A DNA stretch of 64,000 nucleotides from Phycisphaerae bacterium (GTDB lineage: Bacteria; Planctomycetota; Phycisphaerae; UBA1845), in contig JAJDDT010000009.1 of NCBI GenBank assembly GCA_029260165.1, positions 29,074 through 93,073 of the forward strand. Direction: 5' to 3'. Below are positions 1-35,869 of this stretch, in pieces (position 1 is the first letter of the stretch; each line of letters opens with the position of its first letter). A program made the translations under genes and the position numbers. Under the pieces are notes generated by a model. That model was given only the letters and a program-made list of their open reading frames with translations, was not told the origin of the DNA and searched no databases.

Positions 1-1199
1 CGGGCATCCAGGTGACCCAGGCGGTGGCGACCTGTCCAGCCAACTTCCGCGACGATGCCAAGCAGGCGTTACTTGAAGCGTTCAAACGCAACGGCATCAA
101 GGTCCTGCGGCTCATCCCCGAACCCACCGCCGCCGGGTACGCCTACGCCCTCGATCGTGGCGGCAGCAACAGTACGTTTTTGATCTATGACTTCGGAGGC
201 GGGACGTTTGACGTCTCCATCATCCGCCTTGAAGGAAGCCAGTTCACCGTGCTCAGCACGGAGGGCATCCCCACGCTCGGGGGCAACGACATCAGCCGTT
301 GTATCGAATCACGCGTATTGGATGACGTTGAGGCAGCCTGCGGTCGTCGACCCTGTCGTGAGGATGACGGACTCTTCTTCCTGGACCTCGACCAGCGTAT
401 CGAAACAGCCAAGATCTCACTGGGCAAACAAAAGGAAGTGCCCATCGTCGCATCGTTTGTTGGTCAGCAAACCATCGTCAAGATCACGCAGGTGGAGTTT
501 CATGCGAGTATCGACTCCTTGATCGGTCAGAGTCTGGATGCCACGGATCGGGCGATCGTCGCGGCGGGACTGACCATCGACGCTATCGACCGCTTGGTGA
601 TGGTCGGTGGGACCTCCCGCCTGCCGCACATTCAGGAGCGGGTCGCCGATCATACGGGATTGGTTCCACGTACGGACATTGATCCCGACAAGGCCATTGC
701 CTACGGTGCCGCGTTGGCATGTGTGGCGGAGATGGACAAGAACGGCCAGGCCGCCACGATCCACGGCCAGGTCATCCCAGCACCCGAATTGTTCGTCCAG
801 GATGTCACCGCCCATGACGTCGGTTGCTCGGCCCTCATACACGACGGTCCCAAGCAACGCCTTGTGAACGCAGTGATCATCCCCAAGAACACCGCCATCC
901 CTTGCCAGAAGACGGATCACTTCTACTTGGAGAGCGAGGAGCAAACACGGGCAAAGGTTGAGATCCTTCAGGGCGAAGGGCGTGCCAATCGCGACGATTG
1001 CCTGGTGATCGGCGAGATCATTCTGGACAACCTTCCGACCGAGACCGTTCAGTCGCAACGCATCTGTGTGCAATACACGATCGATGCCAACGGCATGGTC
1101 ACCGCCACCGCCACGGACAAGGTGAGCGGCATCAGTCGCACCGTATCGGTGGATTACAAAAAGGGTATTCATGCTCGCCAGCAGCCAGCCGCAGCTTAA
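1..1199 (+). CDS. Hsp70/DnaK-family ATPase, 5' end cut by the window edge; nucleotide-binding domain plus beta-sandwich substrate domain, no C-terminal helical lid
   Basis: The frame is open from nt 3. Hsp70 actin-fold motifs are present: IPEPTAAGYAYAL, LIYDFGGGTFDVSII, LVMVGGTSRLPHIQERV, DPDKAIAYGAAL. A DnaK-like beta-domain signature follows (ICVQYTIDANGMVTATATDKVSG). The ORF stops about 25 aa later, with no lid region. Confidence 0.85.
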   Translation, partial: GIQVTQAVATCPANFRDDAKQALLEAFKRNGIKVLRLIPEPTAAGYAYALDRGGSNSTFLIYDFGGGTFDVSIIRLEGSQFTVLSTEGIPTLGGNDISRCIESRVLDDVEAACGRRPCREDDGLFFLDLDQRIETAKISLGKQKEVPIVASFVGQQTIVKITQVEFHASIDSLIGQSLDATDRAIVAAGLTIDAIDRLVMVGGTSRLPHIQERVADHTGLVPRTDIDPDKAIAYGAALACVAEMDKNGQAATIHGQVIPAPELFVQDVTAHDVGCSALIHDGPKQRLVNAVIIPKNTAIPCQKTDHFYLESEEQTRAKVEILQGEGRANRDDCLVIGEIILDNLPTETVQSQRICVQYTIDANGMVTATATDKVSGISRTVSVDYKKGIHARQQPAAA

Positions 1200-10914: not shown

Positions 10915-12108
10915 ATGACGCTTCGACAGGTTGTTTTTCGGTTGATGTTGTGGGCGTTGGCATTTGCGGCGGTGGGGGGTGCGCTGGCGTCCTTGTTTCT
11001 GCGCGGTGATACGATTGGTCGTGTGATTGGGACGGGCGTGCTGATTTCGGTGGCGTGTGCCATGATGTTGCCCATTGCGCGGTTGGTCGAGAAGCCCGAC
11101 GGGCGATCGGCGGGGCTGGTCGGAATCGGCTTTATCGTGGCCGAGCTGATGGCTTCGCTCGCGTTGGTTTGGGACATTCCGCGAAAGCTCGGGGGTTGGC
11201 GTATCACGGACCGGGTGGCGATGGGTATGTTTGCATCGGCGTTGGGCGGGATTGCGATTGCGTCGATGCTTCGGTTGGCGGGGCGGCGTGAGAATCGGGC
11301 GGCGGGGATTTGGGGGACGTTTTTTGCGACGGTTGGCTGGGGCATCGGGATGGCGGGGGCCTTTGTGGGGCGGGCTCCTCAATCGGACCGGTTGTTTGGG
11401 ACTGCTCTTAATGTGGGACTGTGCGGACTGGTGTCGGCGGTTTGCCTGTTGGGTCGGACATTCCCGGGTGCGGGGATTATTCGCTGGATTGGTATCGCAT
11501 CGATCGCGATCGGTGGATGGCTTCTCGAGCGGGAGTTGTTGACTCATGGTGGGCATGGGCGTGGTTCATTTGTGGCGAGCGTGTATTTCCTGACCATCGG
11601 GGCGGCTGTGGCGACCCGTGTTCTTTTGGATTCGATCCAACTGCGCGAAGGGCAATCATGGTTGCGGCCGGGGGCGTTCTGGGGGGCGGTGGTAACCGGG
11701 TTGTTCGTGGATGTTCTCATGACGATGGACACCTATCGGGTTGGGTCGCGGACGACGACCGAACTGTTGACGCGCGTTTCCGGGGCGTCGGGGATTCTGA
11801 CCTGCTGCGGGATGTTGGCGATGCTGGTGTTGTCGCGGATGAACAAGCGTGTTGAGAGGCCCGCGGTGTTGTCGGAGTTGCGGTCTCTGGAGGTGATTTG
11901 TCCGGGTTGTGCGCAAAAGCAGGTGATCGATGTTGGCGGCGCGGTCTGTGAAAAGTGTGGATTGCGGATGCGCGTGGAAATCGCCGAACCCCGGTGTTCG
12001 CGTTGCGATTACCTCCTGTTCGGGCAGCGGTACGAGCGTTGTCCGGAGTGCGGGGACCCGGTGCGGTACGATGAAATGGCACGGATGGGTTGGGCGGGGG
12101 ATGGTTGA
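10915..12108 (+). CDS. multi-pass membrane protein with C-terminal double zinc-ribbon
   Basis: About 9 hydrophobic helices, followed by CPGC...CEKC...CSRC...CPEC. Confidence 0.6.
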   Translation: MTLRQVVFRLMLWALAFAAVGGALASLFLRGDTIGRVIGTGVLISVACAMMLPIARLVEKPDGRSAGLVGIGFIVAELMASLALVWDIPRKLGGWRITDRVAMGMFASALGGIAIASMLRLAGRRENRAAGIWGTFFATVGWGIGMAGAFVGRAPQSDRLFGTALNVGLCGLVSAVCLLGRTFPGAGIIRWIGIASIAIGGWLLERELLTHGGHGRGSFVASVYFLTIGAAVATRVLLDSIQLREGQSWLRPGAFWGAVVTGLFVDVLMTMDTYRVGSRTTTELLTRVSGASGILTCCGMLAMLVLSRMNKRVERPAVLSELRSLEVICPGCAQKQVIDVGGAVCEKCGLRMRVEIAEPRCSRCDYLLFGQRYERCPECGDPVRYDEMARMGWAGDG

Positions 12109-12232: not shown

Positions 12233-12261
12233 TTGAATCTCGACCGCATGATCGATAATAA
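12233..12261 (+). promoter_or_regulatory. candidate sigma70-type promoter for the ilv leader
   Basis: TTGAAT (12233-12238), 17-nt spacer, TAATAA (12256-12261), inside an AT-richer intergenic stretch. Pattern match only. Confidence 0.3.
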
Positions 12262-12277
12262 TGCGGGATTGCCCGTG

Positions 12278-12484
12278 ATGATGCGGGTTTGGATGGTTGA
12301 GAGTTTGGTGAGATTCATGCGTTCATTGGCCCACAACAGCTTTGGGACAGCCGGTACTGCTGAGGCGAGTGTTGTGCGCGCTGGAACCGTAGGTGTGGTC
12401 GGTACCCCGATCAGCCTCCTCCTTATTCTGGTACTTATTGTAGGTCGCGACATGCGACACGGGAGCAGCATGAAGCTCACCTAG
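12278..12484 (+). CDS. candidate branched-chain-amino-acid-rich leader peptide (68 codons from ATG 12278; shorter GTG/ATG starts are possible)
   Basis: The peptide ends ...VVRAGTVGVVGTPISLLLILVLIVGRDMRHGSSMKLT*. The run at 12410-12442 is 10 of 11 Ile/Leu/Val, encoded by CTT, ATT and GTA codons that look rare for this GC-rich genome. The stop lies 24 nt before a strong terminator and about 120 nt before ilvB. Confidence 0.45.
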   Translation: MMRVWMVESLVRFMRSLAHNSFGTAGTAEASVVRAGTVGVVGTPISLLLILVLIVGRDMRHGSSMKLT

Positions 12485-12507
12485 TCAGAAACCTGACTGA
12501 GAACTTC

Positions 12508-12548
12508 AAGCCGACGACCGTGTCAAAACGGTCGTCGGCTTTTTTTTA
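12508..12548 (+). terminator. rho-independent terminator / probable attenuator upstream of ilvB
   Basis: aagccgacgaccg (12508-12520), loop tgtcaaaa, cggtcgtcggctt (12529-12541): a perfect 13-bp GC-rich stem followed by T8-9. Confidence 0.8.
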
Positions 12549-12605: not shown

Positions 12606-14288
12606 ATGGCTGATCGAAGCGGGTCACAGGTTGTCGTTGACGCACTCGTGCAGGCGGGTGTTGATCTTGCGTTTGGGTACCCGGGCGGTGCGGTTTTGCC
12701 TCTGTACGACGTATTGTTGGGGTCGGGCGTACGGCACATCCTGACCCGCCACGAGCAGTCCGCCATCCACGCAGCCGACGGTTATGCGCGCTCGTCTGGA
12801 CGACTCGGTGTGTGTATTGCGACGTCGGGACCCGGTGCGACCAACCTGGTGACTGGAATTTGTACGGCGATGATGGATTCCACACCGGTTTTGTGCATCA
12901 CAGGGCAGGTCCCGTCACGGCTGATCGGAACGGACGCGTTTCAGGAAACGGACGTTTCCGGTGTTGTGACCGGAATCACGAAACAATCCTGGCTGGTCCG
13001 CAACGTTGACGAACTTCCGCAGGTGATGGCTGAGGCGATTTTCATCGCGACATCAGGTAGACCGGGACCGGTGTTGGTGGATATCCCCAAGGACGTATTG
13101 GTTGCGTCGACGGGAAAAACAAGTGTTCAGACGACATCGTTGCCTGGGTACGACCCGATGCCGGACTTCGATGGCAACGAGCTGGATCGTGCCCATCGAC
13201 TGCTCAAGGCGTCCAAACGTCCGGTGTGCATCGTGGGTGGCGGTTGTGGAATGTCGGGTGCGACCGAGCGGTTCCGACGCTGGTGCGCCGCGACGCAAGT
13301 CCCGGTGGCGACGACGTTGATGGGGATCGGGTGTGCGGGGCCTGACTACGCGGGCAGACTCGGGATGCCGGGGATGCACGGGCTTCGTCGTGCGAACCTG
13401 GCCATCAGCGATTGCGATTTGATTATTGCCATGGGAATTCGGTTTGACGATCGGGTGACGGGCCACCTGGAGCGGTTCGCCCCGGACGCAAGGATTATCC
13501 ACATTGACATTGACGCGGCGGAGATCAGCAAGATCGTTCCGGCGAACGTCGCGATCAACGGTGATCTGGACGCGGTCCTGCTGGAGTGGATGTTGCTGCT
13601 GGAATCGGACCCCGTCGAACCATTTGGACGGTGGCAGCGGGAAGCGATGGCGGTGGGCGACGGTTTGGAAACGGCGTCTGCGGCGGACTCGGGAACGATC
13701 GATTTTACCGAATTGTTGGACAGTCTGTTCGACATGATCGGGTCAGCGCCGATCGTTGCGACGGACGTGGGTCAGCATCAGATGTGGACCGCGCAGCGTG
13801 TTCGTCCGGACCATCCGCGAAAGTTTGTGTGTTCGGGCGGGCTTGGAACGATGGGATTCGGGCTTCCGTCGGCGATCGGAGCCCAATTCGCCAATCCGAA
13901 CGAAAAAGTGCTGGCTGTCGTCGGGGATGGCGGATTTCAAATGACCCTGGCTGAGCTTGCCACGGTTCGCCGTTGCAATCTACCCCTCAGGATTCTCGTG
14001 ATGGACAACAAGTATCTGGGGCTTGTGCGCCAGTGGCAGGAGATGTTTTTTGATCAGCGTTACAGCGCGGTGGACATGTCGGACAACCCCGACTTTGCGC
14101 GACTGGCGGGGGTCTACGGCCTTGGCGCGTTCACGCTTTCCGATCCGAACGAAGTGAATTCAACGTTGCAGAAATGGTGGCACTGTGATGGGCCTGCGTT
14201 GCTGCATTGTATTTGTCCTACGCAACAAAACGTCTTTCCCATGGTTCCCGCAGGCGCGGGTCTGGGGGACATGGTGGAGTCAAAATGA
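12606..14288 (+). CDS. ilvB: acetolactate synthase, large (catalytic) subunit
   Basis: GSQVVVDALVQAGVDLAFGYPGGAVLPLYD, the TPP-binding GLGTMGFGLPSAIGA...GDGGFQM region, and full-length resemblance. Confidence 0.95.
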   Translation: MADRSGSQVVVDALVQAGVDLAFGYPGGAVLPLYDVLLGSGVRHILTRHEQSAIHAADGYARSSGRLGVCIATSGPGATNLVTGICTAMMDSTPVLCITGQVPSRLIGTDAFQETDVSGVVTGITKQSWLVRNVDELPQVMAEAIFIATSGRPGPVLVDIPKDVLVASTGKTSVQTTSLPGYDPMPDFDGNELDRAHRLLKASKRPVCIVGGGCGMSGATERFRRWCAATQVPVATTLMGIGCAGPDYAGRLGMPGMHGLRRANLAISDCDLIIAMGIRFDDRVTGHLERFAPDARIIHIDIDAAEISKIVPANVAINGDLDAVLLEWMLLLESDPVEPFGRWQREAMAVGDGLETASAADSGTIDFTELLDSLFDMIGSAPIVATDVGQHQMWTAQRVRPDHPRKFVCSGGLGTMGFGLPSAIGAQFANPNEKVLAVVGDGGFQMTLAELATVRRCNLPLRILVMDNKYLGLVRQWQEMFFDQRYSAVDMSDNPDFARLAGVYGLGAFTLSDPNEVNSTLQKWWHCDGPALLHCICPTQQNVFPMVPAGAGLGDMVESK

Positions 14289-14563
14289 TGAAAATCCTTA
14301 CGTTTGCCCTGGTCCTTCGGCGCATGTCAGCGCTGACCAACGTGTTCATGCTCTGTCAACGACTTGGTGGAACGATGACCTACATCTCCGCCGCCGACGG
14401 GAGGGCCAACATTGTTGTGTCGGCACCTCAGCGATCAGCCCATCGCTTCGCACCGCAGTTGAGGAGGATCATGGACGTTCTCGAATTGATCGAACTGCAC
14501 GCGGCCGGCGTGAACGGTTCGGTGCGCGCGTCCGACGCGGAACCGGTGCGGTGTCGCGCATAG
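14285..14563 (+). CDS. ilvN: acetolactate synthase small (regulatory) subunit, short IlvM/IlvN-like ACT protein
   Basis: The ATG overlaps the ilvB TGA (ATGA). It is 92 aa. The ACT-like pattern ILTFALVLRR...ALTNVFMLCQRLGGTMTYISAA...ANIVVSA...QLRRIMDVLEL resembles E. coli IlvM. Divergent, so only moderate confidence. Confidence 0.65.
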   Translation: MMKILTFALVLRRMSALTNVFMLCQRLGGTMTYISAADGRANIVVSAPQRSAHRFAPQLRRIMDVLELIELHAAGVNGSVRASDAEPVRCRA

Positions 14564-14599
14564 AAGCTTGTTGAGAGGAAAGAAACAGGAGAGTTTGTG

Positions 14600-15733
14600 A
14601 TGAAAGTCTTGTACGACGTGGATTGTCGCGCGGAGGCGCTTGCGGGCAAGCGTATTGCGGTCATTGGGTTCGGGTCGCAGGGTCATGCCCATGCCTTGAA
14701 CCTTCGCGACAGTGGACATGATGTTGTTGTTGGCTTGCGCCCCGAGAGCCGTTCGCGCGTTTCAGCAGAGGCAGCCGGGCTGAAGGTTTATGACACGGCT
14801 GAGGCGGTTCGACGGGCCGATGTTGTGATGGTGTTGATTCCGGATGAGCTTCAGCCGGAAATCTACAGGAAGGATATCGGACCAAACCTGAAACCTGGGG
14901 CGGTGCTCGCGTTTGCGCACGGGTTCTGCATCCATTTCAAGAAAATCGTTCCAGAGGCTGGGATCAACGTATTCATGGTGGCTCCAAAGGGTCCGGGTCA
15001 CCTGGTTCGACGCGAGTACGAGAGCGGAAAGGGCGTGCCGTGTTTGCTGGCGGTGCATCAGGATCCGTCGGGAGACACGCGTGAGATCGGATTGGCGTAC
15101 GCATGTGGGGTTGGCGGCGGTCGCGTGGGGATACTGGAGACCACGTTTCGAGAAGAGACGGAGACGGACTTGTTCGGTGAGCAGGCTGTTCTGTGCGGAG
15201 GTCTTACGGAGCTGATTCGTGCGGGGTACGAAACGCTTACCGAGGCTGGTTACGCACCGGAGATGGCCTACTTCGAGTGTTTGCACGAGGTGAAGCTCAT
15301 CGTGGATTTGATTTACGAGCAGGGAATCACAGGGATGCGACACTCGATCAGCAACACGGCGGAATACGGCGATTTGACCCGCGGAAAACGCGTGATCGGT
15401 GAGGCGACCCGCCAATCGATGCGGAAGCTTCTGGTGGAAATCCAATCGGGTGCGTTCGCCGACGAATGGATGGCGGAGTGCGCGGCTGGCAAGGCGAAGA
15501 TGAAGGCAGCCGCTGATCGGGAGGCAGCGCACCCTGTGGAGCAGATCGGGCGGCAGCTTCGCGGGATGATGCCGTGGCTTATGGAAAAATCCCAGGCGGT
15601 TAATCGGTCCGCACCGCAGTCGCTTAATGGTGATGTTCCGTTCCCGTCCGCGCGGGGGTTGGATTACTGTTTGAAGATGACGAGTTCGCCCGCAACGCGA
15701 CATCGCGCTGGCGGAAAGCAGGGAGTTGGTTGA
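14600..15733 (+). CDS. ilvC: ketol-acid reductoisomerase (class I) with a ~45-aa C-terminal extension
   Basis: [34 protein letters not shown] Rossmann motif. A GTG at 14597 is also possible. Confidence 0.95.
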
Positions 15734-17326
15734 ATGAGCGACCGCATCTACATTTTTGACACAACGTTACGCGACGGAGAGCAGTCGCCAAGGGCAACGT
15801 TGGATGCGGAAGCCAAGCTGGAAATCGCGCATCAACTTGCTCGATTGGGTGTCGATGTGATCGAAGCTGGTTTTCCTGCAGCCTCACCGGGCGATCTGGA
15901 AGCGGTCAAATCTATCGCGGAGCACGTTGGTACAGCGAACGGTCCGACGATCACCGGCCTCGCCCGGACGACACGCGGCGATATCGACAAATGTTGGCAG
16001 GCGGTGAAGCCGGCGGTTCGGCCACGCATCCATACGTTCATCGCGACCTCCGACGTTCATCTCAAATACAAGCTGCAGATGAGCAGGTCGCAGGTTCTCA
16101 ATCGTACTGGTGAGATGGTGACGTACGCGCGTGGTTATTGCGCCGACGTCGAATTCAGTGCGGAAGACGCGAGCCGCACCGATCCCGTGTTTTTGCACGA
16201 GGTTCTTGCGGCTGCGATCGAAGCGGGTGCCACCACGTTGAACATACCCGATACGGTGGGTTACGCGCAACCTGCGGAGCTTGCCGAGATGGTTCAGCGT
16301 GTGATCGAGAACGTCTCGGGGATGGACCGATGTATTTTGTCCGTGCATTGTCACGACGATTTGGGGCTTGCTGTCGCCAACACGATGGCGGGTTTGCAGG
16401 CTGGTGCTCGGCAGGTGGAGTGTACGATCAACGGGATCGGCGAGCGTGCGGGCAATGCTGCGCTCGAGGAGATCGTGATGGCGTTGCACACTCGGGGGGA
16501 GTGGTATGGGCTGCACTCGGAGTTGGACACAACGCAGTTGACGCGAATCAGCCATCTGGTGGCGGCGAGAACGGGGATTTCCGTTCCGCCGAACAAGGCG
16601 ATTATTGGTGCGAACGCGTTTTCGCACGAAGCGGGTATTCATCAGGACGGTGTGCTCAAGCACAGTGCGACCTACGAAATCATGAGGCCTGAGACCGTCG
16701 GGCTGACGCAGAGTCGGTTGGTGCTGGGCAAGCATTCCGGGCGTCATGCCTTGCGAAAACGCCTTGAGGAAATTGGCTATGTCGAGCTAACCGATGATCA
16801 GACCGATCGCGCCTTCGCGCGTTTCAAGCAACTGGCGGACAAAAAGAAGACGGTGACCGAAGCCGATCTGGAAGCGTTGATTGCCGACGAGTTTCAGCAA
16901 CCTGAAGCGTTGTTCGTGTTGCACGGCGTGCATGTGTCGTGTGGTTCGCCGTCGATTCCCACCGCGAGTGTCTCGATCACGCTTCCCAACGGTGAATGCG
17001 AAACGCGTGCGTCGACCGGCAGCGGTCCCGTTGACGCCATCTTTTCTGCGGTGAATCAAATTGTTCGGGTCGAGGCGGAGCTGTTGGAGTATGTGGTGCA
17101 TGCGGTCAGCGGTGGCGTCGACGCGCTCGGGGAGGTGACGGTGCGGATTCGCGGATGCGGCGAGAACGCCCGGACGCTTAGCGGACACGGTGCCGATACG
17201 GATATTCTGGTGGCCAGCGCGAAGGCGTATGTGGCTGCCATCAACAAACTTTCGCGTGCACCGACGCCGGTTTGTTCGGTGTCCGGCAGCGATCTCAACG
17301 TTGAAACAGTGGCGGTTTCCTCATGA
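15734..17326 (+). CDS. leuA: 2-isopropylmalate synthase
   Basis: [28 protein letters not shown], and a C-terminal LeuA dimerisation/regulatory domain. The start directly abuts the ilvC stop. Confidence 0.95.
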
Positions 17327-18696
17327 AGATGACGTTGACGGAGAAAATTCTCGCTCGCGCGTCGGAGGTTTCCCATGTGATTCCGGGCGACAGCGCCATG
17401 GTCTCTGTGGATATTCTGATGACGCACGACGTGTGCGGGCCCGGCACGATCGGCGTGTTCAAGCGCGAGTTCGGTGAAGACGCTCGCGTCTGGGATCCCG
17501 AAAAACTGGTGATCATTCCAGATCACTACATTTTCACGTCCGATAGCCGCTCGAATCGCAACGTGGACATCCTCCGCGAGTTCGTGGCTGATCAGGGCGT
17601 GCGCTATTTCTACGACGTGATTGACGACGGCGGCGTGTGGCGTTTCGATCCGAACAAGAGCCTCGCTCTTCCGCAATACGGCGAGCAATACGCTGGGGTG
17701 TGTCACATCGCGTTACCTGAGAAGGGTCATACCCGTCCCGGCGAGGTGCTCGTGGGGACGGACTCGCATACCTGCACCGCTGGCGCGTTCGGCGAATTCG
17801 CCACCGGTATCGGAAATACCGATGCCGCGTTCGTTATGGGCACGGGCAGGATTCTGCTTCGAATACCGGAGACGATGTACTTTCGGCTGGTAGGTGAGTT
17901 GTCCGGAGGGGTCATGGCCAAGGACATCATTTTGCACATCATCGGCGACATCGGGTTCGACGGCGCGACGTACAAAGCCATGCAATTCGGCGGTGAAGGT
18001 GTTGCGGCGATGTCAATGGAAGATCGGATGACCGTCGCGAACATGGGCGTTGAAGCAGGGGCGAAGAATGCGGTGTTCGAGGCTGACGCACGCACGCACG
18101 CGTTTGTCGATGCGGCAGCTCAAGCCAACGGGACAGTGCGACCCTACGAGACAATCGAGCCTGACGTTGGCGCGCGATATGTGTACGAATCGACAGTCGA
18201 TCTCTCATCGCTCGAACCCACCGTGGCGATGCATCCGGACCCGAGCCAAAGGACGACAGCGCATGCGTGTCGCGACGTCAAGCTGGATCGCGCCTACATC
18301 GGGTCGTGTACGGGTGGAAAAACAGGCGATTTTGAAGCGTTCGCCCGCGTTGTGCGCGGCAAACGAGTGGTCATCGATACGTTTGGTGTGCCCGCAACGC
18401 CGCAGGTGGTCAGGGAGTTAAAGGCGACAGAGAACGGTGGCAGGAGTGCGTGGGACGTTCTTGTAGAGGCAGGGGTGAACATGACCGTCAGTGCCGGGTG
18501 TGCTGCGTGTCTGGGCGGTCCGTCCGACACGTTTGGCCGACTCAACGAGCCGCTGAGTTGCATCAGTACGACGAATCGTAATTTTCCGGGACGCATGGGA
18601 CACCCTGACGCACGCATTCATCTGGCTAGTCCGTACACGGTGGCCGCGTCTGCGTTGGCGGGTCACATCGCCGACCCGCGAGACTACCTGGAATGA
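17323..18696 (+). CDS. leuC: 3-isopropylmalate dehydratase large subunit
   Basis: ATGA overlap with leuA. Aconitase-family motifs: [27 protein letters not shown]. Confidence 0.9.
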
Positions 18697-19328
18697 TGAG
18701 GGAAGGAACTATTGTCGCTATGGAATGTGATGACGTGCAATCTGTGGGACGAAGGGACTGTGCAATGGACGATACGATCGTGGGAAAAGTTTATGTGGTG
18801 GGTGACAACATCGACACCGACCAGATCATTCCGGCGGAATATTTGTCGCTCGTTCCCACTATTCCGCAGGAGTACCAGCAACTCGGAACGTATGCGCTGC
18901 GCGGATTACCTGCAGATCAGTATCCACAGCGGTTGATGGAACCCGAGAGTGTGCGGTCGGACTACACCGTGATCATCGCGGGTCGCAATTTCGGTTGCGG
19001 TTCGTCACGCGAGCACGCGCCGATTGCGCTGGGGGCGGCTGGTATCCGCATCGTGATCGCCGAATCGTTTGCCCGGATATTCTTTCGCAACTGTGTCGCC
19101 ACCGGGGAATTGTACCCGATCGAATCCCAATACCGATTGTGTGACGATTTCAGGACCGGGGACAGGGTCGAGGTCAATCTGACCGCTTCGCAGCTTCGTA
19201 CCGATGGATCCGTAGCCATGTTCCCACTCAAACCGCTCGGTGAGGTCGAGGAAGTTGTCGCTGCGGGCGGATTGTTCGCGTACGCCCGTCGCAAGGGTTG
19301 GGTTCAACAACCGGCAGTGGTGTCATGA
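18693..19328 (+). CDS. leuD: 3-isopropylmalate dehydratase small subunit (start may be the internal ATG at 18765)
   Basis: ATGA overlap with leuC. GKVYVVGDNIDTDQIIPAEYL and GRNFGCGSSREHAP. Confidence 0.9.
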   Translation: MMREGTIVAMECDDVQSVGRRDCAMDDTIVGKVYVVGDNIDTDQIIPAEYLSLVPTIPQEYQQLGTYALRGLPADQYPQRLMEPESVRSDYTVIIAGRNFGCGSSREHAPIALGAAGIRIVIAESFARIFFRNCVATGELYPIESQYRLCDDFRTGDRVEVNLTASQLRTDGSVAMFPLKPLGEVEEVVAAGGLFAYARRKGWVQQPAVVS

Positions 19329-20917
19329 TCGAGCTATACGACACGACGTTGCGCGACGGCACGCAGGGCGAGGGTGTTTGCCTGACGATTCAAGACAAAC
19401 TGCGCATCACGTCGATGCTGGACAGTTTTGGGATGCACGTTATCGAGGGCGGTTGGCCCGGGTCAAACCCCAAAGATGCTGAATACTTCCGACGCGTCCG
19501 CACCATCAAGCTCAAGCACGCGCGGATCGCCGCGTTCGGCAGTACTTGTCGGCCATCGTTGTCACCCGGTGACGATCCGAACATCTGCGCCCTGCTCGAA
19601 AGCGAAGCGCCGGTGACGACCATCTTCGGGAAGGCGTCGACGAGGCACGTCGCGCGGGTCCTTCAAACCGATCTGAACAACAACCTGCGGATCATCGAAC
19701 AGAGCGTGTCGTTTCTCAGGGATCGCGGTCGCGACGTCATTTTTGACGCCGAACATTTTTTCGACGGCTACCTTAACGATCCCGATTACGCGTTGGCCAC
19801 GCTTAAGGCAGCAGTGGCGGGTGGGGCAAATACGATCGTGCTGTGCGATACCAATGGCGGGACGATGCCCTGGCAGATCGAGTCAGTCGTGACGCATGTC
19901 GCAAGCCTGATCAATGTTCGGTTGGGTATTCACGCACACAACGACGGTGGGTGTGCCGTCGCCAATTCGGTCATCGCCGTTCGCGCTGGCGCGACCCATG
20001 TGCAGGGCACCATGAACGGAATCGGGGAGCGATGTGGTAACGCCGATCTGTGCACTGTGATCGCCAATATCGAAATCAAGACCGACGAACGGGCGTTGCC
20101 TGTCGGCCAACTTTCCAGACTGACCGAACTCTCGCGCGGCGTGAGTGAAATCTGCAACGTCGCGCACGCAGGCAGTGCTCCATACGTCGGACGCAGCGCG
20201 TTCGCCCACAAGGGCGGGGTTCATGTGGCTGCGTTGCAACGGGAAGCGGGGTGTTATGAACATGTGGAACCCGAGCGGGTCGGAAACCGGCAACGGATTC
20301 TCGTGTCGGAACTTTCCGGCCGGGGCAACATCCGTCACCAGGCCGACAGAATCGGAATGCGCAATAACGACGACAACCGCAACGGTGTCGTGCTGTCGCG
20401 GATCAAGGAATTAGAGAACCAGGGTTTCGCGTTTGAAGCAGCGGAGGCATCGGTGGAACTGATGCTGCGACGCGAGGGACCAAATTATTTGCCGTTCTTC
20501 GAGTTGATCGATTTCATGGTGGTTGTCGAATGTCGCGAGGGCCGTGGACACCTGGCTGAGGCGAGTGTCAAGATTCGCTCGGGAGATCAGGTATTGCACA
20601 CCGCCGCAGACGGTGTCGGACCGGTCGGTGCTCTGGATACAGCCCTCCGCAAATCACTCGTTGAGAAATACCCCGCCGTCGACGGATTTCGACTGATTGA
20701 TTACAAGGTCAGAATCCTCGACGGAGGGAACGGGACCACTGCGATGACGCGGGTGCTCATTGATTCGAGCGATGGCGAAGACACCTGGAGCACGGTCGGT
20801 GCGTCGCGAAACATTATTGAAGCCAGTTGGCTGGCGCTCTACGACAGTTTTGAATACGGCTTGATGAGGGCTTACCTGGGACGTGCAAAATCGACGGCCT
20901 TGGCTGAATCTGCATGA
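19325..20917 (+). CDS. cimA: citramalate synthase-type (LeuA-related) enzyme
   Basis: ATGA overlap with leuD. IELYDTTLRDGTQGEGV, the GWPGSNPKD pattern and the C-terminal domain match the CimA-like branch rather than LeuA. The subfamily call is by eye. Confidence 0.8.
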   Translation: MIELYDTTLRDGTQGEGVCLTIQDKLRITSMLDSFGMHVIEGGWPGSNPKDAEYFRRVRTIKLKHARIAAFGSTCRPSLSPGDDPNICALLESEAPVTTIFGKASTRHVARVLQTDLNNNLRIIEQSVSFLRDRGRDVIFDAEHFFDGYLNDPDYALATLKAAVAGGANTIVLCDTNGGTMPWQIESVVTHVASLINVRLGIHAHNDGGCAVANSVIAVRAGATHVQGTMNGIGERCGNADLCTVIANIEIKTDERALPVGQLSRLTELSRGVSEICNVAHAGSAPYVGRSAFAHKGGVHVAALQREAGCYEHVEPERVGNRQRILVSELSGRGNIRHQADRIGMRNNDDNRNGVVLSRIKELENQGFAFEAAEASVELMLRREGPNYLPFFELIDFMVVVECREGRGHLAEASVKIRSGDQVLHTAADGVGPVGALDTALRKSLVEKYPAVDGFRLIDYKVRILDGGNGTTAMTRVLIDSSDGEDTWSTVGASRNIIEASWLALYDSFEYGLMRAYLGRAKSTALAESA

Positions 20918-32872: not shown

Positions 32873-34279
32873 ATGATCGCTCCAAAATCAAACGGCCAAC
32901 CAAACCTCGCCACCGATTTCTGCGGTATCAAATCGCCAAACCCGTTCTGGCTCGCCAGCGCACCACCCACCAACTCAGGCTACCAGATCCGACGCGCCTT
33001 CGACGCGGGTTGGGGCGGCGCGGTGTGGAAAACGCTCAACCACGACCCCATCGTCAACGTCTCATCCCGATACGCCGCCGTTGACTACGACGGGCGAAAA
33101 ATCATAGGCCTCAACAACATCGAGCTGATCACCGACCGAACACTCGACGTCAATCTCAAGGAAATCGCCGAAGTCAAACGCGACTACCCCGACCACGCGC
33201 TCATCGTCTCGCTCATGGTCGAATCAAAACGCGAAACCTGGCACGACATCGTCAAACAAACCCAGGACACCGGTGCAGACGGCATCGAACTCAACTTCGG
33301 CTGCCCGCACGGCATGAGCGAGCGAGGCATGGGAGCAGCCGTCGGACAGGTCCCCGAATACTGCTGCATGATTGTCGAATGGGTGAAAGAAGCCGCCCAA
33401 ATCCCCGTCATCGTCAAACTCACACCCAACATCACCGACATCCGCCTCGCAGGTAGAGCCGCCAAAAAAGGCGGAGCCGACGCCGTCTCACTCATCAACA
33501 CCATCAACTCCGTCATGGGCATCGACCTCGACACCCTCGCACCCAAACCCGCCGTCCGTGGCAAGGGATCACACGGCGGATACTGCGGACCCGCCGTCAA
33601 ACCCATCGCCCTCAACATGGTCAGCCAGATCGCAACCGACCCCGAAATCAACCTCCCCATCAGCGGCATCGGCGGTATCCAGGCCTGGCAGGACGCAGTC
33701 GAATTCATGCTTCTCGGATCAACCTCCGTTCAGGTCTGCACCGCCGTCATGCACTACGGCTTCCGAATCGTCGAACACCTCATCAGCGGCATGACAAACT
33801 GGATGGCTGAAAAAGGATTCCAATCCACGACCGACTTCATCGGAAAATCCTCCCCACTCCTCACCAACTGGAGCGACCTCGACCTCAGCTACAAAGTCGT
33901 CGCACAAATCGAACCCGAAAAATGCATCAACTGCGGACTATGCTACATCGCCTGCGAAGACGGCTGCCACCAGTCCATCAACATCGAATCCGTCACCGAG
34001 AAAGAATTTCTCAAACGCACACCGTCCGCAAAAGATCGCGTCTTCACCTCAGGCAACAACCAATACACCCACGGAGCAGGCGACGGTTACGTCAACATCT
34101 TCACCATCAATCAGGACACCTGCGTCGGTTGCAACATGTGCTCGCTCGTCTGCCCCGTCCAAGGCTGCATCGACATGAAGGAAATCGACACCGGCAAACC
34201 CTCAATGACCTGGCGCCAATACCAGGCCCTCCTCGCCGAAGGAAAAATCGACCCCATCCAACCCCCTGAGCATGTCTGA
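32873..34279 (+). CDS. preA: dihydropyrimidine dehydrogenase subunit PreA-like (DHODH-fold plus two 4Fe-4S ferredoxin motifs)
   Basis: GAGGA RBS. FCGIKSPNPFWLASAPPTN, ELNFGCPHGM, and C-terminal CINCGLCYIACEDG and CVGCNMCSLVCP. The start is set at the ATG downstream of the REP rather than at 32798. Confidence 0.85.
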   Translation: MIAPKSNGQPNLATDFCGIKSPNPFWLASAPPTNSGYQIRRAFDAGWGGAVWKTLNHDPIVNVSSRYAAVDYDGRKIIGLNNIELITDRTLDVNLKEIAEVKRDYPDHALIVSLMVESKRETWHDIVKQTQDTGADGIELNFGCPHGMSERGMGAAVGQVPEYCCMIVEWVKEAAQIPVIVKLTPNITDIRLAGRAAKKGGADAVSLINTINSVMGIDLDTLAPKPAVRGKGSHGGYCGPAVKPIALNMVSQIATDPEINLPISGIGGIQAWQDAVEFMLLGSTSVQVCTAVMHYGFRIVEHLISGMTNWMAEKGFQSTTDFIGKSSPLLTNWSDLDLSYKVVAQIEPEKCINCGLCYIACEDGCHQSINIESVTEKEFLKRTPSAKDRVFTSGNNQYTHGAGDGYVNIFTINQDTCVGCNMCSLVCPVQGCIDMKEIDTGKPSMTWRQYQALLAEGKIDPIQPPEHV

Positions 34280-35836: not shown

Positions 35837-35869
35837 AAAAAAAGGGGGCCCGCACTCGTGCAGGCCCCC
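35837..35869 (-). terminator. rho-independent terminator after the PEP-CTERM gene 35907-36536
   Basis: Minus strand reads GGGGGCCTGCAC..GTGCGGGCCCCC followed by T7. Confidence 0.75.

Follow-up and report, generated by a model that had tools for sequence, protein, structure and literature searches.

A probable ribosome-mediated transcription attenuator in front of ilvB in Phycisphaerae

Gene regulation in Planctomycetota is almost uncharted. The DNA analyzed here is a 64,000-nucleotide stretch (the window) of contig JAJDDT010000009.1 from a Phycisphaerae bacterium, in which an operon for the branched-chain amino acids (BCAA) Ile, Leu, and Val begins with ilvB. Upstream of ilvB lies a seemingly empty gap of about 500 bp, of the kind that is left blank or annotated as a hypothetical protein of 44 to 60 amino acids. 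An earlier note on this DNA had proposed that the gap holds a leader-peptide transcription attenuator, and this reading is supported here by a plan common to all 13 loci that were compared, the window included. The element that accounts for the gap is very probably a ribosome-mediated leader-peptide attenuator, which would adjust the read-through into ilvB-ilvN-ilvC-leuA-leuCD to the availability of charged Ile, Leu, and Val tRNA.

Promoter, leader reading frame, and terminator before ilvB

The first element in the gap is a sigma-70-like promoter. The TTGAAT-N17-TAATAA pair that had been pointed out in the earlier note is present, with the -35 hexamer at 12233-38 and the -10 hexamer at 12256-61; the promoter scan called the same -10 as AATAAT (12257-62) with an 18-nt spacer. 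This promoter is one of just two promoter-like sites in the 4 kb scanned and is preceded by a T-rich tract. Transcription of the leader would start near 12269. No promoter-like site was found by the scan in the 58 nt between the terminator and ilvB.

The frame that closes at the TAG at 12482-84 translates to ...VVRAGTVGVVGTPISLLLILVLIVGRDMRHGSSMKLT followed by the stop. Judging from the sequence, the open reading frame (ORF) most likely starts at ATG 12317: GGTGAG stands upstream of this codon, which corresponds to the sole ATG of the leader in the related locus L081, and the window and L081 peptides share ...(D/H)N..(L/F)..(S/A)GT. Within the ORF, Ile, Leu, or Val is specified by 10 of 11 consecutive codons, as described in the earlier note. 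None of 3,000 dinucleotide-preserving shuffles of the gap reached this count (the maximum was 9), and no other 11-codon window with at least 10 such codons occurs in the six frames of the 64 kb. The codon choice, which had been called conspicuous, is indeed unusual. Both Val codons are GTA, which makes up 3.3% of the Val codons in eight neighboring genes; CTT and CTC each account for 15-16% of the Leu codons in these genes, and TTG, their commonest Leu codon, is missing from the run. The G+C content at third codon positions (GC3) is 0.45 in the run versus 0.68 in the neighboring genes. The run is proposed to be the site at which the ribosome stalls in response to a shortage of charged Ile, Leu, or Val tRNA, and its mixed composition is in keeping with an operon for all three amino acids.

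The ORF is followed by an intrinsic terminator. Its existence and its distance of 58 nt from the ilvB ATG at 12606 agree with the earlier note, whereas the stem, which had been described as 13 bp of G-C, consists of 14 perfect pairs, of which 9 are G-C (AAGCCGACGACCGT / ACGGTCGTCGGCTT; about -27 kcal/mol). With strong canonical terminators defined as T6+ and -14 kcal/mol or stronger, this is the sole one on the plus strand of the 64 kb and one of four over both strands. The other three are all on the minus strand, at 35843 and 53930 after gene ends and at 33469 within a gene on the opposite strand; none of them was attenuator-like. From these four in the 64-kb window, canonical intrinsic terminators seem sparse in this genome. 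The positions of all features are collected in Table 1.

Table 1. Leader elements and operon genes of the window, with the basis of each assignment
Feature	Positions	Strand	Description and basis
Sigma-70-like promoter of leader and operon	12233-12262	+	Promoter scan; motif kept in relatives
Leader ORF (most likely start)	12317-12484	+	55 codons plus TAG, MRSLAHNSFGTAGTAEASVVRAGTVGVVGTPISLLLILVLIVGRDMRHGSSMKLT; translation, ATG matched to L081
Regulatory codon run (proposed)	12410-12442	+	ATC AGC CTC CTC CTT ATT CTG GTA CTT ATT GTA (ISLLLILVLIV)
Small 1:2 hairpin (predicted)	12444-12458	+	GUCGC 12444-48 with GCGAC 12454-58; minimum-energy folds, about -4 kcal/mol
Antiterminator (predicted)	12456-12524	+	Long imperfect nested hairpin; 3' half is the terminator 5' arm and loop
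Antiterminator, outer helix			GACACGG 12456-62 with CCGUGUC 12518-24
Antiterminator, single pairs			G12465-C12515, C12466-G12513
Antiterminator, further pairs			GC 12468-69 with GC 12510-11
Antiterminator, middle helix			UGAAG 12471-75 with CUUCA 12504-08
Antiterminator, further pairs			UC 12477-78 with GA 12501-02
Antiterminator, apical hairpin	12482-12499	+	12482-88 with 12493-99; minimum-energy folds
Intrinsic terminator (attenuator)	12508-12547	+	Stem 12508-21 / 12528-41, loop GTCAAA, T8 12540-47
ilvB	12606-14288	+	Acetolactate synthase large subunit, first regulated gene; Pfam TPP_enzyme_N, TPP_enzyme_M, TPP_enzyme_C
Rest of regulated operon	14285-20917	+	Pfam assignments; small gene by match to L081
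Small gene in ilvN position	14285-14563	+	92 codons
ilvC	14597-15733	+	Pfam
leuA	15734-17326	+	Pfam
leuC	17323-18696	+	Pfam
leuD	18693-19328	+	Pfam
Second LeuA/CimA-like synthase	about 19298-20917	+	Pfam

The leader in related loci

Among 5.8 billion sequences, the IlvB proteins closest to that of the window are at most 72% identical to it, and where named they come from Phycisphaerae or Phycisphaerales. They form a clade of about 64 clusters with 56-72% identity to the window protein; everything else lies at or below 50%. Twelve distinct loci spread over this clade (IlvB 56-72% identical) were used as relatives, giving 13 loci with the window. Two close metagenome matches among those listed (L092 and L093) lie on contigs that begin inside ilvB and are therefore without the leader. 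In a full-length IlvB scan of genome contigs, the matches listed were all at most 50% identical and came from other phyla; they later served as the outgroup and control set. Two IlvB proteins of the Phycisphaerae clade (P0063 and P0064, 56% identical to the window protein) carry the labels of Blastocatellia and Acidobacteriota metagenome-assembled genomes, which points to either mis-binning or horizontal transfer of the operon.

In all 12 relatives, ilvB is preceded by a gap of 430-750 bp that contains an ORF with a C-terminal Ile/Leu/Val run and then a strong terminator. Leader ORFs of 38-70 codons, in frame from an ATG, were found in 13/13 loci, and gene callers had annotated the ORF in L088, L090, and L091. 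The ORF tails of relatives, each ending at its stop codon, read ...IGVLLPLVLIIVSRVQRREGGMKLT, ...GLISLVSILIISPLRASGYGERF, ...LLALVLVVLLIISPLEGSGIGL, ...IILVELISVLVSVLLLSHRKRRER, ...LPLVIISVVLLR, ...VIGITVIIAISEEGGAASGS, ...LRLVLVLLISRERRPGCGATVIET, ...HLVLLVLSVLLLILRGRSGEAPGR, and ...VSLVLAALVVIPLRRCGDPSA. Loss of the run in relatives, which the earlier note had named as a reason to abandon its reading, was not seen: the run is kept in 13/13 loci. When each locus is represented by the 15 codons up to and including the last one of the run, Ile, Leu, and Val make up 137 of 195 residues (70%), and F, M, W, Y, and C do not occur. The run codons are skewed to minor ones (GTA, ATT, and CTY); their relative frequency in the cognate ilvB averages 0.22 versus 0.43 expected. 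GTA accounts for 27 of the 44 Val codons of the runs, and GC3 is 0.22-0.56 in the run codons versus 0.57-0.88 in ilvB.

The flanking signals are kept as well. A promoter-like motif, (g)TTGnnn-N17-(cga)TAAWAn, precedes the leader in at least 8 of the first 10 loci, 200-290 nt 5' of the leader stop, and occurs at the same place in L081, L083, L085, L086, L087, L088, and L090. The terminator, GCCGAC...GTCGGC-T6-8, is located 35-170 nt before the ilvB ATG in 13/13 loci; it is the consensus structure of the full alignment, and three of its pairs show compensatory changes. A further motif, (A)ACYTSAA(A)C, recurs 5-12 nt before the terminator in the window (12499-12511), L083, L085, L088, L089, and L090, with GAACTTCAAGCC, AACTTGAAACC, ACCTTGAAACC, and AACCTGAACAT as examples. 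In most loci it is the 3' strand of the antiterminator middle helix. It is conserved in L172 though unpaired in the predicted fold, and it may have a second role, e.g., as a pause or factor-binding site.

For pairs of sister loci, identity amounts to 73-93% over the segment that begins with the run and extends to the T-tract. Identical codons are used at 34-56% of the conserved IlvB residues, and the N-terminal part of the leader and the spacer after the terminator are just 24-53% identical. Because the run and the RNA that follows it are more alike than the IlvB codons, the N-terminal part, or the spacer, selection acts on nucleotides there. From the sequences, the leader ORF looks like a sensor rather than a protein, and the run looks like regulatory codons rather than a membrane helix.

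If the ORF were a true gene for a small, hydrophobic, single-pass membrane protein and had a terminator of its own, the run would be a transmembrane helix and ilvB would be expressed independently. The length of the ORF (38-70 codons, long for a leader peptide), its annotation by gene callers in three relatives, and the hydrophobic nature of the run (11-16 residues) are in line with such a protein. However, the absence of F, M, W, Y, and C from all 195 run positions is hard to reconcile with it, as are the selection of minor codons and the conservation of the run and the downstream RNA at synonymous positions. The N-terminal two thirds, in turn, show only 28-53% nucleotide identity, even between sister loci. 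In addition, complementarity and covariation link the 3' end of the ORF to the terminator arm, and ilvB has no promoter-like site of its own after the terminator. Pfam at E up to 10 gave no match for the window peptide or the peptides of eight relatives, and NCBIfam gave none for the window peptide and only subthreshold chance matches, far under the cutoffs, for two relatives; the Serratia IlvL control scored 70 and 75 bits. A membrane protein is thus considered very unlikely.

The genes upstream of the leader are unrelated among the 12 relatives and include a radical-SAM enzyme, an Mpo1-like protein, a PPIase, a YjgF-family protein, a peptidase, an ABC transporter, and TerC. In L081, L083, L085, L091, and L174, the upstream gene is on the opposite strand. 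Thus, the terminator travels with ilvB and not with the neighbor. This bears on a doubt raised in the earlier note, namely, that the terminator ends the transcript of the upstream gene (10915-12108). If it did, the promoter-like site and the ORF would be due to chance. That gene does lie on the same strand in the window, and the leader frame is open back into it. However, the terminator stands about 400 nt past its stop codon, no second such run occurs in the 64 kb, and in the relatives the promoter motif is kept and the leader and terminator follow unrelated genes, some of them on the opposite strand. There is therefore next to no likelihood that the terminator belongs to the upstream gene.

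Downstream of the leader, the order ilvB, small gene, ilvC, leuA was found in 11 relatives; the exception is L091, in which leuA comes immediately after the small gene. The small gene at 14285-14563 overlaps the ilvB stop (ATGA) and shares 66% identity with its L081 counterpart, and a gene of 79-97 amino acids occupies the ilvN position in 12/12 relatives. It gave no Pfam match (no ACT or ALS_ss_C) and no PDB sequence match. It is probably a very divergent regulatory subunit.

Antiterminator folds and the proposed switch

The earlier note had seen just 5-bp candidate antiterminator pairings; however, an extended antiterminator exists at 12456-12524, with a predicted energy of -32.6 to -33.3 kcal/mol when the terminator 3' arm is withheld. 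Its apical hairpin holds the leader stop TAG (12482-84) and encloses the hairpin agtcag-aaac-ctgact (12483-98), which had been noticed earlier and is present; the apical hairpin is nearly identical in L081. According to the fold, a ribosome at the stop codon must melt the apical hairpin. The small 1:2 hairpin shares 3 nt of its 3' strand with the antiterminator strand. Relatives have an analogous small hairpin directly 3' of the run, whose 3' strand likewise overlaps the antiterminator strand. This weak hairpin would be the analogue of the classical 1:2 structure, with its 5' strand under a run-stalled ribosome.

The stalled state was modeled by folding the RNA that begins 12 nt 3' of the last run codon and reaches through the terminator loop. 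A long nested hairpin was obtained in 13/13 loci, at -15.6 to -35.9 kcal/mol (most at -20 to -36). In every locus, the hairpin is built from the final portion of the ORF as its 5' strand and from the terminator 5' arm as its 3' strand; in these folds with the ribosome in the run, 55-100% of the arm is paired. With the ribosome at the stop codon, the residual structure was just -0.4 to -8.8 kcal/mol across the loci. In the window, a ribosome at this position masks about 12467-97, so that the lower terminator arm is released, and the energy of the terminator state is then -35.4 kcal/mol. In 13/13 loci, a distance of 12-16 nt separates the last run codon from the antiterminator strand, which begins, in the model, just past the reach of a run-stalled ribosome. 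Thus, the mutually exclusive antiterminator on which the earlier note had made its reading depend was found in 13/13 loci, and RNAalifold independently recovered it from the alignment.

Covariation between the antiterminator strand and the terminator 5' arm was also found. Duplexes of cognate strands averaged -20.9 kcal/mol versus -16.5 kcal/mol for noncognate ones, and the z score of the cognate duplex against its own shuffles was negative in 13/13 loci (-1.3 to -5.3). In the window, the cognate duplex (-17.7 kcal/mol) ranked first of 13 in its own row. RNAalifold on the truncated sequences returned the antiterminator outer helices GCGGG/CCCGC and CGG/CCG. With the structure derived from the same 13 sequences on which it is scored, 91.9% of the cells of the antiterminator alignment were paired versus 83.9 ± 1.7 in column shuffles (0/500 reached the observed value), and sliding the partners lowered the paired cells to 29-39%. 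Five of eight antiterminator pairs change on both sides versus 0.9 expected, and 0/500 shuffles reached five.

As seen in silico and by comparison of the loci, the parts, their order, and their spacing are conserved and are those of the classical four-segment ribosome-mediated attenuator. A leader ORF with an in-frame start and stop lies 3' of a promoter-like motif (predicted), it contains a codon cluster for the operon's own products, an intrinsic terminator stands between it and the first structural gene, and a mutually exclusive antiterminator depends in silico on the position of the ribosome. The following course of events is proposed. Transcription would begin at the promoter, and a ribosome would translate the 55-codon leader while RNA polymerase moves ahead. 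When BCAA are scarce, the ribosome would stall among the ten minor Ile/Leu/Val codons and cover about 12-15 nt downstream, including the 5' strand of the 1:2 hairpin, leaving the RNA from 12456 onward free. This RNA would pair with the emerging terminator 5' arm, and the resulting antiterminator would block the terminator so that the polymerase reads into ilvB.

When BCAA are plentiful, the ribosome would translate up to the stop codon (TAG at 12482), located at the antiterminator apex. There, it would cover about 12467-12497 and melt the inner helices in which the lower part of the terminator 5' arm (12501-15) is held. The freed arm could then form the 14-bp terminator (12508-41) followed by T8, and transcription would end at about 12547. 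If the leader is not translated, the 1:2 hairpin and the terminator would form, which would lead to termination as well.

Several points weigh against this mechanism. At equilibrium, the terminator is favored in the window despite a stalled ribosome (probability 0.96), the terminator state having an energy of -51.8 versus -33.3 kcal/mol for the antiterminator, and in masked equilibrium folding it wins in 9/13 loci at any ribosome position. Therefore, the decision would have to be kinetic, which is the accepted view for classical, trp-type attenuators. Since the switch is invisible to equilibrium folding, folds were computed instead for the RNA present before the 3' arm is made. A ribosome at the stop codon does not cover the outer helix (12456-62/12518-24). 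The antiterminator of the window itself is marginal, with z = -1.67 and 15/300 shuffles matching its complementarity. The masking model, with a +12 mask at the last run codon, found no antiterminator for the known Serratia ilvG leader; it is thus crude and was not used to argue absence anywhere.

The length of the leader is a further difficulty. It has 55 codons, and counted from the start codon, the run lies about 93 nt and the T-tract about 230 nt away; tight coupling over such a distance probably needs polymerase pausing. The start codon is not certain, with in-frame alternatives at 12278, 12281, and 12293. The 13 loci include three near-sister pairs, so the covariation rests on few independent lineages. 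Finally, the case is built from sequence comparison and predicted folds, from which we infer the transcription start, the choice of ATG, stalling, the kinetic competition, and the physiological response.

The full-length leader folds better than its shuffles (z = -4.3). In the full-length minimum-energy fold, a Shine-Dalgarno-like GGUGAG and the AUG (12306-12321) pair with GCAUGAAGCUCACC (12468-12481) at the end of the ORF. This predicted pairing could shut off re-initiation on finished leaders. In L081, no obvious complement for it was found, as judged by eye.

Conserved terminator/antiterminator pairs are also features of riboswitches and T-boxes. On this ground, and given its better-than-shuffled fold, the leader might be a translation-independent RNA switch, i.e., a riboswitch (such as the ppGpp type before some ilvB genes), a T-box, or the target of a protein antiterminator, with an incidental ORF. 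However, the region 5' of the run, where an aptamer is expected, is the least conserved, and an open frame with a run of pathway-cognate codons is kept in 13/13 loci despite sequence turnover. In addition, no Rfam 15 family, including the cis-regulatory ones (T-box, ppGpp and other riboswitches, and ilvB-associated motifs), reached its gathering threshold in the window region or the 12 relatives. A switch of this kind is therefore highly improbable. In the window, no Rfam match appeared at E up to 10 except three generic weak ones. One was RF02744 (12.3 bits, E = 0.96, over 12430-12542), against a gathering threshold of 88. Another was RF02499, Atu_C4, at 32.4 bits (E = 7e-4, over 12482-12546), against a gathering score of 80.

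Atu_C4 is a small RNA (sRNA) family of Rhizobiales, and attenuator-derived sRNAs exist, e.g., rnTrpL of Sinorhizobium (PMC7968998). The terminated leader (about 280 nt, or its 3' two-hairpin part) might thus be mainly a trans-acting sRNA, instead of or besides a cis attenuator. However, the subthreshold Atu_C4 match spans just a generic hairpin and the terminator and is far under the gathering score, there is no pointer to any target, and the codon run and its spacing would be left without explanation. We see scarcely any chance that the leader is mainly an sRNA. Identity with Atu_C4 itself was dropped, as the match is subthreshold and comes with no usable literature.

Somewhat less remote, albeit still unlikely, is that the leader is either bifunctional, acting in cis and in trans, or genomic evidence that translation closely follows RNA polymerase in Planctomycetota. 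Because the leader is unusually long (38-70 codons) and has a separately conserved 3' two-hairpin RNA, the terminated transcript of about 280 nt or the peptide may act in trans, by analogy with rnTrpL/peTrpL of Sinorhizobium. A ribosome-mediated attenuator would in any case be indirect evidence for transcription-translation coupling in these cells. If true, such coupling bears on Planctomycetota, in which the cell plan and the separation of transcription and translation are debated. The understanding of how attenuation works is unchanged by the finding. The family offers a testable regulatory element and a putative BCAA-responsive promoter-leader cassette for Phycisphaerae.

Comparison with known attenuators

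In the literature searched, no leader-peptide attenuator was found described for Planctomycetota or Phycisphaerae. The earlier note had likewise known of no description in PVC-type (Planctomycetes-Verrucomicrobia-Chlamydiae) genomes, and the literature and family searches agree with it; yet, similar devices before ilvB are common in other phyla. Leader attenuators of the ilv-leu genes in Staphylococcus and Listeria are among the closest analogues (PMC5794164, PMC5864092). The ilvB-OMG and Leptospira "ilvB" motifs were found computationally upstream of ilvB and have been reinterpreted as attenuators with an upstream ORF (uORF) rich in BCAA (and Thr) codons (PMC10272879). A text search of the ilvB-OMG supplement gave no Planctomycetes or Phycisphaerae label in the alignments, and the motif shows no resemblance to the present leader.

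ORFs with Ile/Leu/Val runs were also seen directly 5' of ilvB in Acidobacteria (L008, L032, L066, and L007), a spirochaete (L076), and Sphaerobacter (L061), and on metagenome contigs (L154/L152, L094, L144, and L143/L102/L153). They are followed by a terminator in most loci; MDSVKTIVNPVRIAIIIGIIIIPCHIGSG, MLRDLLVVVVLLSREPSVRRR, and ..ILLIIILKE, each ending at the stop, are examples. Most of them are apparently attenuators that have not been curated. A covariance model of the Phycisphaerae family scored 45-80 bits on its training loci and at most 26 bits on all else (174 loci and the window, about 1.1 Mb); it found no members beyond the training loci and no second copy in the 64-kb window. The loci of other phyla, at 26 bits or less, are therefore analogous devices and not detectable members of the Phycisphaerae family. 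This suggests that attenuation before ilvB has been invented many times.

The enterobacterial ilvGMEDA leader (ilvL; PF08046/NF007744; RNA RF02744, "Rev39_5p_UTR") is a close parallel. It likewise has a multivalent Ile/Leu/Val run, a terminator just before an acetolactate synthase gene, and alternative hairpins chosen by ribosome position, a plan that is clear in the sampled Serratia, Xenorhabdus, Buttiauxella, and Budvicia loci. RF02744, listed as "Soft rot Enterobacteriaceae Rev 39 5'UTR," scored 202.5 bits on Serratia plymuthica (L005, 2680-2982). As this match falls exactly on the ilvGMEDA leader that encodes IlvL (PF08046), RF02744 is the classical ilvG attenuator under another name. Membership of the window peptide in IlvGEDA_leader (PF08046) or NF007744 was ruled out, as it gave no match. 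The two leaders show no detectable peptide or RNA homology, and ilvL has 32 amino acids versus 55 in the window (38-70 in the Phycisphaerae family). Unlike the ilvGMEDA leader, the Phycisphaerae leader has its stop codon in the apex of one long nested antiterminator hairpin, and it belongs to another phylum and precedes an operon of other content (ilvBNC-leuACD).

The E. coli ilvBN leader (ivbL) and leu leader (leuL) are of the same mechanistic class, and ivbL likewise precedes ilvB. However, ivbL senses only Val and Leu and leuL only Leu, their peptides have 32 and 28 amino acids, and neither matches the window peptide in Pfam. The use of rare codons, a further similarity, is known to serve sensitivity in leuL (CUA). 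The actinobacterial ilvBNC attenuators (the Corynebacterium ilvB-II motif and the three-hairpin model of C. glutamicum) share the order leader-ilvB-ilvN-ilvC. They also have a uORF rich in BCAA codons before a terminator, with antiterminator logic (PMC10272879, PMC11857589, PMC1262725). They differ in their short uORF, another RNA sequence family, and a Gram-positive lineage, and the Corynebacterium attenuator is supported experimentally, whereas the Phycisphaerae leader is known from sequence and predicted folds.

Taken together, these comparisons point to a separate, uncurated attenuator family that would work like the enterobacterial and actinobacterial ilv attenuators and is confined, in this sample, to the Phycisphaerae IlvB clade. 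What would set it apart is the length of its leader peptide, together with an antiterminator made of one nested hairpin that carries the stop codon near the apex.

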